Source of the DNA: Chrysomallon squamiferum
Lineage: Eukaryota > Animalia > Mollusca
Assembly (NCBI GenBank): GCA_012295275.1
Contig: CM022676.1
Span: 4,216,001 to 4,280,000, forward strand
Reading direction: 5' to 3'
Length of the DNA stretch: 64,000 nucleotides
Below the pieces are notes generated by a model. That model had not been told where the DNA came from. It ran no database searches and was given only the letters and a program-made list of their open reading frames with translations. The position numbers and the translations under genes are program-made. The number at the start of each line of letters is the position of its first letter. Within the stretch, counting starts at the first letter, position 1. Positions 1-63,421 of this stretch are shown in pieces.

Positions 1-189
1 CGCCATCTTGAAATCTCGTGATATTAGTCAGTGCCAGTAGTCCGTTGTTACTGACAGTCTGATTGGTCAGTTCCCATCTGTAGAGGCATTTGATAAAACA
101 GTCGGCTTTGCATGATATTGTGACGTCACTTCCTTCACCTACAGTGATGTCAGATGAAGAATTGACTCGAACTGAAGTACCGGGACCGT
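1..189 (-). CDS. G1 Ig exon type D (partial)
   Basis: ttcatag|[49 protein letters not shown]. Confidence 0.85.
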
Positions 190-3100
190 CTATGAAAATA
201 TAATAATTATAAATTAATTAATTAATTAATTAATAATTTTAATAATATTAATAATTAATAAATAAATAAATACATCAATGATAATTGTTTGTTTCTATTA
301 TCATCAACATGATCCTCATTATAATAATAACCATCAACATCATAGACATATTCATCATCATTATTATTCTTATACCTGCTAATACTGTTGTTATTGGTGT
401 TGTTGTTGTTGCTATTATTATTATTATTATTATTATTATTATTATTATTATTATTATTATTATTATTATTATTATTATTATTATTATTATAAATTAAATT
501 TATATTATAATACCTCTAACTTTCAACACAATTGTGTTACTCGAATATTGATGATCGATATTTTCACATCGCCAAATATTTCCTTCTTGATTTCTGTTCA
601 CAGATGTTATGGTAACTAGAAACTTGTTACGGAAACATTTGAAAGTGTAATTTCCACTAATACGTGACAAAACATCACAGTGTCCGGGCCCAAAACTATA
701 CACGTCATAGATGACGTCATTCTCAAACCACCTGACGCGATGTGAAGTTTGGAAAATCTGACATGTCAACGTAAATGAAAGACCGCTGACAACGTAAGGG
801 GCAGATCCCTGAAGATTCGGGCGTCCTGAAAGTAAACTGTAAACATTAAACACACCCTGGCACGCCCACACCCTGAGACACAGAGAGAGAAACACACTCA
901 GATAAATACATAGATAAAACAATCTATAGCCTAACAAAGTGAGTCTAATTTTATCTGGATATTCTTAAATAAACGTTTATATCTAACAAATATTATTATA
1001 AATATACACGTCTAACAAATATTGACTTGTTTGTTTATTTTATCATTTGTATTTTTACTCTAATTAGTTTATTACTTACTATGAACAGTCAAACGAAGTG
1101 TTTTATTAGCAGTTTGTTTCGTATCTGGATTTTCAGCAACGCACACATAGAGACCTGATTGTGATATATGAACATTAGCCAATGACAGAATATTTGTGTT
1201 ACTTATGACGTCATCTGCGACCTTCCATTGATAATTACACGTGATGAAACACGTCGCCGAACACAACAGTGTGACGTCACTTCCTTCCACAACAGTCACA
1301 ACAGATGAAGTATTCAGTTTGAGTGATGTTCCAGGACCATCTATAAAAAGCAAAAACATTATCAACATCAGCATCATCATTATCGGTATCATCATTGACT
1401 TCATACATTTGTTTTATCTTTCACAGAGTAGAAACTGTGGGTTGCTCGTATTGTTAGTTGTGAATGTTGTCGTCGTAGTGATGGTGATATCGTAGTGTTT
1501 CAGTTGTTGCTGTTATTATTATAACTATTTATTTATTCTGTTATTATTTTTGATGATTTATTAATTTTATTGTTTTTTCGTCATTAACAGTACTTATTTC
1601 GTAGGATGATAATAATAAACAAAACTGATTTTTACCTCTCACTTCCAGTTTTATTTCATTGCTGCGCTCAAAAAGATCACTACATCTCCACACTGCTCCA
1701 TGTTGACTGAGTTTCACTGATTTTATTGTCAGAGTGTTAATACCATTTGAACAGTTAAAAGTGTATTCTTCTGGATGTTTACTATAAAAATGACACTGTC
1801 CAAGTTCATGCATTATGTGTTCTGTGTTATTCTCAAACCAAATTATTACATCAGAATGGAAAGCTGTCTTGCAGGTAAAAGTAAAAGGTGATCCAACAAT
1901 TGCATATCTGTTTGATGTTGTTAAATTGTAATACAGACCTAAAATTTTAAATAATAAAAAAAAATATATAAAATTAAATTCATTTTTCATAATTACATTC
2001 TTGTTAATTTTTTGTGTTGTTTTCATTAATTTATTTATTTATTATTTATTTATACTTCATTCCATAATTATGTTACATTACGTTACGTTCCTTTACGCTC
2101 TGTTATGGACCGTCATCTTGTTATGTTTTTTTATGTTATGTTATTGTCTCATGTTTTAATACGGATATGTTTCAAAAATTCAAATCACACAATTACGCAG
2201 ATATTTTTTACATTAGTCAACGAAACATAACTTCGACTGAGTATAGATTTCACAGTAAGTAAATTAAATTAACTCAGGTACAGATAAATAGTTGCGTCTC
2301 AAAAGACAGACTGACAGCCCATAATAGAGACACGCCATTTCACAGACAAAACTCTTTATTAGGTCATGTATCCTGTACACCCCTGACTGCATTAATGGTA
2401 TGCTCCAGTCTGTTCATACAAGCAACAGCGAGAGCCTAATTATAATCTGGTAAATGTAATTAATAAATCTACAAAGAAATCTATGAATAAATCTAATTTT
2501 ATATAATTTTGTTCTCTGTTCTGTATTTAGTTTTATCGGACCAGTCTATAATTTATTACAGGTATTATTCAAGGTAAACGGCAGGTAATTAGTAAATGCA
2601 CTCAACCGTGTCTTGTGTTGTTCATGCTGTACTATACTTTATGAGACGTCTGTCTTTTAGGAGGAATATAAAAAACATACTTGTTCGTAAATTACAGATC
2701 CCAGTAACACGAACACACAGAATAACTTATAACTCATTTCAAGTATTTTACTTTTTACTGCTGTTAATATAAAAGCAGTTTTCGACGCCTTCAACGTATG
2801 AGGTTTACTTCCTGCTTCATACACAATATGAACACAAGTGTCACTGGCTCTGCATATTTATGTTTCCCAAGGTTTGTTTCTTACGTTATGACATGACTTG
2901 GTCAGTTTTATTTTGGTATGTTGTGACTCTACCACTCTGTTCAAAACCAGTCATGGATGGAAAAAGTCGAACAAAAGATTTAACGCAAAACACCTAATAC
3001 TCTTTCTGTCAAGTCATTGAGTATCATACTCTTTCTATTGTGTTCGGTTTATACTGGAATGTGTGTGTGTGTGTCTGTGTGTGTGTGTGTGTGTGAGTGT

Positions 3101-61400: not shown

Positions 61401-63421
61401 AATTGAACTCAGGTACACACAAAATGGTTGCGTCTCAAAAGACAGACTGACACCCTATAATGCAGAAACGCCATTTGATAGACAAAACTATTTATTCGGT
61501 CATGGATCCTGTACACCCCTGACTGCCTTAGTGGTATGCTCCAGTCTGTTCATACAAGCAACAACAAGAGCCTAATTATAATCTGGTAAATGTAATTAAT
61601 AAATCTACAAAAAAATGTATATATCTAATTAAATTTAAAACAAATTTGTTCTTAAATCTATATTATTCAATATATTTTGCGGGAAACGGCTGGTGGAATT
61701 AGTAAATGCGCTCAACCGTGTCTTCTGTTGTTTATGCTATACTATACTTTATGAGACGTCTGTCTTTTAGGAGGAATATAAAATACATACTTGTACGTAA
61801 ATTACACATCCCAGTAACACGAACACACAGAATAACTTACAACTCATTTCCAGTGTTTTAGTTTTAACTGCCGTTAATAAAAATATAGTTACTTTCTTTT
61901 CTTCACTGCTTTCTCGATTTTACTGCTGTTAATGTAAAAAAGCAGTTTTCGACGCCTTCTTGTTGTACTTTTATTCTGGTAACTTATGAGGTTTTATTTC
62001 CTGTTTCATACACAATATGAACACTAGTCTCATTGGCTCTGCTTATTTATTAATAAACTAAATCCACTCGACTGAATCAGAAAAATACATAATGCAACCT
62101 GAGATATAACATACAGAGTTGTATTTTGAATAGTTAATTCTGCTTAGAATGTTTTTTCTTCTTCTTCGTTTTTTTTTTTTTATTTTATTTTCTTTTTTTT
62201 ATTATTAGTTTTTTTTTTATTTTTATTGATGTCCGAGTGTATTTATGTACGTTTATAGATATGTGTGAAGGTGTTTTATCTTTATGTATTTATTTATATT
62301 TGCATTTATACAGATATATACATAGACATGTAGTTAAGTATATATGTACGTATGTATATTTCTGTATATGTTATGTATGTATGTGTGTATATGTGTGTGT
62401 TTACATACATATAAACATATATAAACAAACATACACGCAGACACACACACATATATATGTATAAATGTTTAAATATATATATAGAGATATATATATATAT
62501 ATATATATATATATATATATATATATATATATATATATATATATATATATATATATATATATATATATATATATATATATATATATATATATATATGTGT
62601 TCGGGTATCAATTGCTTATATGTAATATATACATACATATATATACATGATATATGTGTGTGTGTGTGTGTGTGTGTGTAAGTAAGTGTGCGTCTGCATT
62701 TTTTAATAATTAGAAATCTTTGCTGCAGAATAAAGGGCGGCCATTTTGGTGGCGTAACCTAGGCAACATGGATGTTTGCCAAGTTTTGTTTCTTACGTTG
62801 TGACATGACTTGGTCAGTTTTACTCTGGTATGTTGTGACTCTACCACTCTGTTTAAAACCAGTCATGGATGGAAAAAGACGAACAAAAAATTTAACCCAA
62901 AACACCTAATACTCTTTCTGTCAAGTCATTGAGTAGCATACTCTCTCTATTGTGTTCGGTTTATACTGGAATATGTGTTTGTGTGAGTGTGTGTGTGTGT
63001 GTGTGTGTGTGTGTGTGTGTGTGTGTGTGTGTGTGTGTGTGTGTGTGTGTGTGTGTGTGTTATTACTGTTTGTTGTTTTGTTTTGTTATTATTATTTGTT
63101 GTGCTTACTTTATTACATATTTTTATATTGTATTACATTATGTTACATTATGTTACGTTATTCTGTGTGTGTATGTACTGTCATATTACGATACATTATG
63201 TTATCCTATCTTATGTTATGTTATGGTTTCATATTTTGATAAATATATTTCAAGACTTCATGTTGCACAGTTATTACCATTAGTCATCCACAAATGACGT
63301 CGACTCCACATTTGGTAAATGAAACGAGACTAACTCAGATAGAGATAAATAATTTGAATATAAAATACATACCTTGTACGTACAATACACACCCCAGTAA
63401 CACGAATAACTTACAACTCAT
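55358..63421 (-). CDS. G6: IgSF receptor, leader-A-B-B-D-E-TM-linker-YYNV-ITAM-like
   Basis: Complete chain. The only defect is +1 nt in a T run in exon A. Confidence 0.82.
55765..55811 (-). CDS. G6 cytoplasmic YYNV exon
   Basis: [15 protein letters not shown]. Confidence 0.78.
56184..56214 (-). CDS. G6 31-nt juxtamembrane exon
   Basis: [11 protein letters not shown]. Confidence 0.75.
57096..57212 (-). CDS. G6 transmembrane exon
   Basis: [38 protein letters not shown]. Confidence 0.85.
57591..57869 (-). CDS. G6 Ig exon E
   Basis: 279 nt, open. Confidence 0.85.
58113..58373 (-). CDS. G6 Ig exon D
   Basis: 261 nt, open. Confidence 0.85.
59036..59296 (-). CDS. G6 Ig exon B (2)
   Basis: 261 nt, open. 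Confidence 0.85.
59964..60224 (-). CDS. G6 Ig exon B (1)
   Basis: 261 nt, open. Confidence 0.85.
60737..61049 (-). CDS. G6 Ig exon A (single +1 indel, probably a consensus error)
   Basis: 313 nt; gcaatttgttgga vs gcaattgttgga in paralogs. Confidence 0.7.
61791..61847 (-). pseudogene. G6 proximal leader exon with phase-0 donor
   Basis: 57 nt, CAA|gtatgt. Confidence 0.6.
63373..63421 (-). CDS. G6 distal signal-peptide exon
   Basis: [17 protein letters not shown]|gtatgt, 49 nt. Confidence 0.7.

Follow-up and report, generated by a model that had tools for sequence, protein, structure and literature searches.

The stretch of 64,000 nucleotides (nt) from Chrysomallon squamiferum analysed here (contig CM022676.1, positions 4,216,001 to 4,280,000; hereafter the window) carries a cluster of six related genes with immunoglobulin (Ig) exons. 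Translated searches and inspection of splice sites placed G1, G5 and G6 on the minus strand and G2, G3 and G4 on the plus strand, in DNA with 30% G+C, many microsatellites and two gaps of 200 N (6405-6604 and 24847-25046). The 37 Ig exons fall into five classes (10 V1, 6 V2, 10 C2a, 9 C2b and 2 D5). Every complete intact one is of phase 1-1, and the frame is kept in 30, with the other seven broken. In G2, G3, G4 and G6, we found a 117-nt exon for a transmembrane (TM) segment, a 31-nt exon and exons with tyrosine motifs, always in the phases TM(1)-31nt(2)-exon(1). When the exons of these four genes were joined by coordinates, all introns were GT-AG and no internal stop was left once broken exons were skipped. 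The open models comprise 1373 codons up to a gap for G2, 590 residues for G3 and, on skipping V1, 382 residues for G4 and 478 for G6. A sequence-only reading of the window had proposed six paralogs with signal peptides, V-like and C2-like Ig exons and, in these same four genes, TM exons and tyrosine tails with just these phases. The exon map and the GT-AG models agree with it, and the paralogous copies and broken exons bear out the clustered birth-and-death family that it described.

G3 (27904-39550, plus strand) has two leaders (27904-27961, with a weak donor, and 29641-29697), a V1 exon frameshifted by two 4-nt deletions (30450-30753), C2a, V2, C2b and D5 (33100-33378) exons, the TM exon (34953-35069) and the 31-nt exon (35809-35839). 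These are followed by four exons that each encode an ITAM (immunoreceptor tyrosine-based activation motif): one of 92 nt and phase 2-1 (36167-36258) and three 105-nt tandem copies of phase 1-1 (36746-36850, 37840-37944 and 38887-38991). Alignment to the G4 end exon identifies the G3 end exon (39504-39550) as a former fifth ITAM exon that is missing 46 nt including the motif. G2 (10200-24736, plus strand) contains a leader, 16 Ig exons of which 13 are intact (the broken ones lie at about 18913, 20867 and 22399), the TM exon (22923-23039), the 31-nt exon (23704-23734) and ITAM exons at 24113-24204 and 24632-24736; its end is concealed by the second N gap. G4 (43605-49541, plus strand) consists of a phase-1 leader, a broken V1 (44399-44717), C2a, two C2b, TM (47904-48020) and 31-nt exons, an exon with a YxN motif (49128-49174) and an ITAM end exon from 49429. 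The layout of G6 (55358-63421, minus strand) is two leaders (63421-63373 and 61847-61791), a V1 frameshifted by one extra nt, two C2a, C2b and D5 exons, TM (57212-57096), the 31-nt exon, a YxN exon (55811-55765) and an ITAM-like end exon from 55488.

The two remaining genes are incomplete in the window. G1 (1-3447, minus strand) has leaders at 3447-3399 and 2737-2681, V1 (1938-1636), C2a (1340-1080), V2 (825-514) and C2b from 189 to the window edge, with its 3' end beyond the left edge. G5 (50619-52467, minus strand) comprises a leader, an intact V1, a C2a with a stop codon and a V2, without TM or tail, and is likely a truncated copy. At 5167-7905, the DNA on either side of the first N gap matches, in opposite orientations, the spacer found after G2 and G3; this gap may hold the 3' ends of two further paralogs.

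All eight tyrosine-pair exons retain both tyrosines at a spacing of eight residues. Seven fit the pattern YxxL/I-x8-YxxL/I, the G6 exon ends in YxxM, and an acidic residue at position -3 is present in five. The tails thus contain at least two ITAMs in G2, four in G3, one in G4 and one, ending in Met, in G6; in G4 and G6, the single ITAM is accompanied by the YxN exon. Among 20,000 shuffled tails each, the observed ITAM count was reached with P = 1e-4 for G2, never for G3 and with P = 1.7e-3 for G4. A six-frame scan of the window with a looser ITAM pattern gave 12 matches, seven in the tail exons and five elsewhere, mostly in simple repeats. The whole ITAM lies on a single exon every time, of phase 2-1 or 1-1. 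As the tandem exons of G3 and its shortened end exon show, the number of ITAMs rose by tandem exon duplication, with gain and loss by duplication and deletion of whole exons. The sequence-only reading had compared the family with vertebrate receptors that signal through ITAMs and inhibitory motifs (ITIMs). Here ITIM-shaped hexamers occur solely as the second half of ITAMs, and none of the four tails in the window belongs to an inhibitory, ITIM-only member with a like ectodomain. With leader, Ig ectodomain, one TM helix and an ITAM in the tail, these genes have the parts of an ITAM-bearing Ig receptor.

The start of the genes is less uniform. In G1, G3 and G6, the leader adjoining V1 is one base shorter and ends in phase 0, so that the sixth V1 codon would read as a stop and no in-frame join is possible. 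An indel in V1 that would compensate for the leader deletion was considered and rejected on account of this same stop. Each of the three genes has a second leader further upstream, of phase 1 and starting at 3447, 27904 and 63421, from which the frame is open, suggesting that the distal leaders are the ones used. V1 itself is frameshifted or broken as assembled in G3, G4 and G6. Skipping it preserves the frame in all three, and an isoform model of the vent snail Gigantopelta aegis (P0121) omits V1. The symmetry of the Ig exons (phase 1-1) allows broken ones to be skipped, so a protein may still be produced from G3, G4 and G6. Tandem repeats of 85-90 nt at 19175-19394 and 30726-31094 consist of several copies of a V1 exon end, donor site included, and could possibly supply alternative donors.

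In a Pfam scan of 14 exons, both C2 exons tested scored above the Ig cut-offs; five V exons from the plus strand, two from the minus strand and both D5 exons matched Ig families below cut-off only. The predicted structure of V1 (predicted local distance difference test score, pLDDT, of 93.6) places three strands between B and D. Its best matches are CD8a (Z 12.7, root-mean-square deviation 1.8, 93 aligned), the T-cell receptor V-beta domain and antibody V domains. Judged by this model, the N-terminal domain is a V-set fold with C, C' and C'' strands and a B-F disulfide. A sequence search of the PDB returned generic Ig matches only (FCRL5, MAG, CEA and titin). The V domain contains four cysteines; C22 and C86 are invariant in 45 of 45 alignment rows and C49 is nearly so. 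In two V2 copies of G2 (14026-14337 and 20259-20570), the fourth cysteine is replaced by Arg, leaving one cysteine unpaired.

Variation in V1 is concentrated at the tip of this domain. Four tip loops, whose limits were taken from the model and set after inspection of the alignment, make up 27 of 103 codons and contain 61 of 122 amino-acid changes, a share reached in 0 of 20,000 permutations and 1 of 103 shifts. The ratio of nonsynonymous to synonymous rates (omega) was 1.4-1.8 for V1, 1.1-1.3 for V2, 0.62-0.70 for C2 (with intervals that reach 1), 0.37 for the two D5 copies (0.14-0.79) and 2.0-2.9 for the ITAM exons. Diversifying selection on V1 is thereby suggested.

Between genes, C2a exons show 84-94% identity, and the genes differ in architecture and orientation. 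At this level of identity, the copies are paralogs, not mis-assembled haplotypes; intact Ig exons are 84-95% identical between most copies. In trees built from 42 V domains and 27 C2 domains, the window domains fell into well-supported classes without G. aegis members; deep splits were weak (80/75; 72/0). This separation fits separate expansions or homogenisation, with no one-to-one orthologs. Two C2a exons within G2 (16566-16826 and 19729-19989) are 99.2% identical, in a repeat whose unit at 18.9-21.1 kb shows small indels, and assembly may account for part of the number of repeats in G2. Over the TM exon, G2 (22873-23064) and G3 share 192 identical bases inside flanks of 93% identity, which looks like gene conversion.

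Eleven read runs were listed, none recorded as RNA, and four of them (X1, X2, X8 and X9) were mapped, to 33060-36600 only. X8 and X9 come from one sample, and we judged them RNA-like because their depth peaks on exons and their contigs contain exon-exon joints. In X8, the depth was 157, 177 and 341 in the D5, TM and first ITAM bins versus 0-56 in intron bins. A D5-TM joint was found in X9, a few bases from the predicted site, and X8 joins the 31-nt exon to the first ITAM exon at GT..AG. In both X8 and X9, the first ITAM exon runs on into the start of the next one and the end of a V exon is joined to TM, matching the G2 prediction. Some of the spliced contigs have no mismatch to the G2/G3 TM exon. 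X1 and X2 contigs contained none of the four joint types; the summed contig depth of X1 was about 2,000-4,500 on exons versus 35-160 on some intron pieces, a figure not usable as copy number. The family therefore appears to be expressed in part, with splicing from Ig to TM and between tail exons, as the sequence-only reading would have it for these joints. In one X8 contig (depth 20.5), the D5 end leads through 24 other letters into the intron before TM, from 33376 to 34598, perhaps in a form that is soluble or has a different 3' end; among the G. aegis isoform models, P0122 skips TM.

The closest relatives come from this other snail. A V-domain profile found five proteins among 7,994 scored, all from G. 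aegis and with 51-58% identity. A full-length search gave six G. aegis proteins and one fish protein, and a wider profile gave ten, eight from G. aegis and two from Haliotis, one of which was in the query. An index-free search returned 112 matches, and 13 beyond the first G. aegis set were looked up by name: four Haliotis, two Dreissena, one each from Mya, Tegillarca, Ostrea, Lottia and G. aegis, and two unnamed. Because these span gastropods and bivalves, the four-cysteine V domain is mollusc-wide. No cephalopod was among the matches looked up by name, and the proposal of a cephalopod-like host has to be abandoned; the relatives point to a snail close to G. aegis. A scan of Joint Genome Institute metagenomes yielded 149 pattern matches and no relatives. 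Neither the profile and full-length searches nor the trees revealed a one-to-one ortholog of a conserved adhesion gene.

The G. aegis homologs (among them XP_041379697.1, XP_041346676.1, XP_041372832.1 and XP_041373955.1) bear the automatic names 'CEACAM1/5-like' and 'Fc receptor-like 5' or are uncharacterized, and the literature found reports no function for them. One of them, P0123, shares the G3 build V-C2-V-C2-D5-TM-YxN-ITAM. Identity is 42-52% in the individual Ig domains and 37% over the TM exon, and the P0123 tail can be aligned to that of G4 through YxN and ITAM (a full-length model of P0123 reached a pLDDT of 51 and was not used). The order TM, YxN-like motif, YSSL-x8-Y-x-x-L/I-x-F is kept in P0123, P0003, P0004 and P0119, with x9 in P0124, and the spacer has diverged. 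The G. aegis homologs differ from the window genes in that each has one ITAM and a final Y-E-N/D-V motif, and the trees suggest a separate expansion. The TM segment opens with a glycine-rich stretch in the window genes, the G. aegis proteins and three abalone proteins; the latter also share a tyrosine pair and are likely homologous as whole receptors. The term lineage-specific holds for the expansion, whereas G. aegis and probably abalones have the same architecture. Proteins of three bivalves, P0026 (Mya), P0027 (Tegillarca) and P0085 (Ostrea), have the four-cysteine V domain and end in tyrosine pairs 7-11 residues apart, and molluscs more widely may have ITAM-like Ig receptors that are not annotated. 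The Dreissena cluster P0008 (36 members, mostly listed as isoforms of two loci) has up to five tandem V domains of this type and a cysteine-rich end, without TM.

With moderate confidence, we interpret the locus as part of a snail gene family that is both expanding and decaying and encodes single-pass Ig receptors with ITAMs of their own. These likely activate cells, probably phagocytes, when the V-type domains bind a ligand that varies, for instance the surface of a microbe. Rapid gene turnover and the variation in the tip loops favour a microbial ligand. By analogy with the oyster receptor CgIgR, ligand binding would cluster the receptors, perhaps aided by the glycine-rich start of the TM segment, for which the GxxxG motifs linked to dimer formation offer a parallel. 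A Src-family kinase would then phosphorylate the two ITAM tyrosines, Syk or Shark would dock through its tandem SH2 domains, and YxN in G4 and G6 might recruit a Grb2-type adaptor; SYK, Shark and SHP2 are annotated in G. aegis. Engulfment and ERK signalling would follow, as they do with CgIgR, and tails with four ITAMs should signal more strongly than those with one. All steps after transcription are inferred.

Several observations weigh against this interpretation. Three of the six first V exons are broken. Synonymous changes in V1 are concentrated in the tip loops as well (12 over 18.5 sites versus 10 over 49.8 elsewhere), which fits gene conversion or mutation clusters. With the null of omega = 1 taking the first model parameter as omega, the excess in V1 was significant under one codon model (twice the log-likelihood difference 6.1) and not under the other (1.9), and V1 diverges at about the rate of the neighbouring intron. 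The ITAM exons show the high omega values given above, and conservation of their four key residues, taken by themselves, is not significantly higher. The RNA-like support comes from one sample labelled 'DNA?' and from short contigs, many of other paralogs and with alleles and paralogs indistinguishable; the TM-to-31-nt junction was absent from the contig rows examined, and no single contig covers a whole gene.

Some of these points would be expected if the locus were mostly a decaying duplication array, with one or two working genes elsewhere and the ITAM exon repeats as neutral by-products. The seven broken Ig exons, the truncated G5, the three proximal leaders that are out of phase, the divergence of V1 near intron level and the C2 omega intervals that reach 1 all fit such decay. 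However, 30 of 37 Ig exons remain in frame at 84-95% identity between most copies, omega of D5 is 0.37, both ITAM tyrosines persist in all eight exons, and spliced contigs exist, some mismatch-free to the G2/G3 TM exon, so that we consider this account improbable. That the copies are haplotypes or duplicated reads of one gene is scarcely credible: the nearly identical C2a exons and indels of G2, the 192 bases shared by G2 and G3 and the two N gaps might be read in this way, but C2a differs far more between genes, architectures and orientations differ, and G. aegis has a family of like kind. Instead of sensing microbes, the ITAM receptors could serve self cues, in engulfing dying or symbiont-laden cells or in adhesion, tissue or shell-matrix roles. 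ITAMs are reported to drive uptake of damaged Drosophila cells (10.1101/2022.03.04.482883), Ig-domain proteins are reported from peltospirid hard-part proteomes (PMC11871041), and the look-alikes in a protein atlas were HEPACAM2, CD22 and CEACAM clusters. A fixed self ligand, however, predicts neither tip-loop variation nor rapid turnover nor species-specific expansions, which makes this explanation quite unlikely.

Clustered Ig receptors, pseudogenes and ITAM tails are also the gross layout, as far as described, of Hydractinia Alr and Botryllus FcoR, and a locus that serves allorecognition or gamete recognition through homophilic binding specific to each allele would look similar. Yet the window genes have no Fn3-like spacer, and no inhibitory partner is found within the window. 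Snails, moreover, are solitary, and we know of no fusion-rejection system in them; we find this alternative, one of those raised by the sequence-only reading, very doubtful. A bolder version of the phagocyte receptor reading is that of a gastropod immunoreceptor complex older than the abalone split that expanded anew in vent snails. Its exon modules would evolve independently, the V-set tip loops for ligand specificity and the count of one-ITAM exons (from 1 to 4 or more) for signal strength, and the snail would use it to recognise and cull chemosynthetic symbionts. We put it forward tentatively and regard it as unlikely. Lottia is a non-symbiotic limpet. Since Lottia is listed with 59 members of a 'CEACAM5' orthogroup to which the family may belong (PMC7895826), the link to symbiosis is weakened; hints in its favour are that four 'CEACAM5-like' genes of G. 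aegis, putative family members, are reported as up in the symbiont-bearing oesophageal gland and that the orthogroup is largest in G. aegis, Bathymodiolus and Chrysomallon (PMC7895826).

Among known systems, the oyster receptor CgIgR is described as having five Ig domains, a TM segment and its own ITAM; it binds bacteria, recruits CgSyk and promotes phagocytosis, with ERK signalling as part of its output (PMC6994640). It is described as one gene with one ITAM (PMC6994640), and its likeness to the window family is by description only. CgIgR was not among the named matches of our searches for relatives.

Membership in the CEACAM family was rejected on the gastropod relatives, the unsplit ITAM exons and the V-domain cysteines: the CEACAM N domain lacks the B-F disulfide, whereas the window V domain has four cysteines. 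The activating CEACAMs (CEACAM3 and the ITAM CEACAMs of dog and opossum) do resemble the window genes in their V and C2 build, clustered birth-and-death and own ITAM, and marsupial members carry a YxN motif, as G4 and G6 do (PMC2832619). In contrast, the CEACAM family is described as vertebrate-restricted, its ITAM is split by phase-0 introns over several exons, and the activating members are paired with the ITIM-bearing CEACAM1 (PMC2832619). The closest relatives of the window family are gastropod, and its ITAM is whole on one exon.

Hydractinia Alr (10.1101/2022.03.04.482883) and Botryllus FcoR (PMC12582321) are likewise reported as invertebrate clusters in which Ig receptor genes stand beside pseudogenes, exons have been shuffled and the tails are of ITAM/ITIM type. 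Alr proteins have one to three unusual Ig domains and the Fn3-like spacer (10.1101/2022.03.04.482883), whereas window genes have up to 13 intact Ig exons (G2). Unlike the window family, both systems are genetically tied to allorecognition (10.1101/2022.03.04.482883; PMC12582321). Membership in Alr was rejected on architecture, as the membrane-proximal D5 matches Ig_3 and no Fn3 family appeared in the Pfam scan. We found no sequence link between the window family and Alr or FcoR. CD3-zeta has several ITAMs in one tail and is an adaptor with almost no ectodomain; the chains described here differ from it in joining ligand-binding domains to up to four ITAMs, whose number varies between neighbouring genes.

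In the mainly open-access literature, as far as its accessible parts go, we found no description of a snail Ig-ITAM family (including PMC11999971, PMC7736800, PMC11871041 and PMC12582321) or of whole-exon duplication as the source of ITAM number, apart from a 'CEACAM5' orthogroup whose members are counted. This orthogroup, OG0000013, is given as having 130 members in G. aegis, 103 in Bathymodiolus, 101 in Chrysomallon and 0 in Octopus and Euprymna (PMC7895826). The names of the G. aegis homologs agree with its label; its gene ids are not tied to RefSeq ids in the parts of that source available (PMC7895826). The family is outside both CEACAM and Alr, and no name for it was found in the literature, in accordance with the sequence-only reading; it is a real, unnamed receptor family, with a design of an already known kind. 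If its ligand were a symbiont, it would provide candidates for the host's receptors in vent symbiosis, at present obscured by automatic 'CEACAM-like' names. The natural series of one, two and four ITAMs on near-identical receptors makes the effect of ITAM number on signalling directly testable. ITAM signalling in molluscs is known from one oyster gene in the literature found, and a clustered, diversified snail family would show that the KIR/CEACAM style of receptor design arose in molluscs too.

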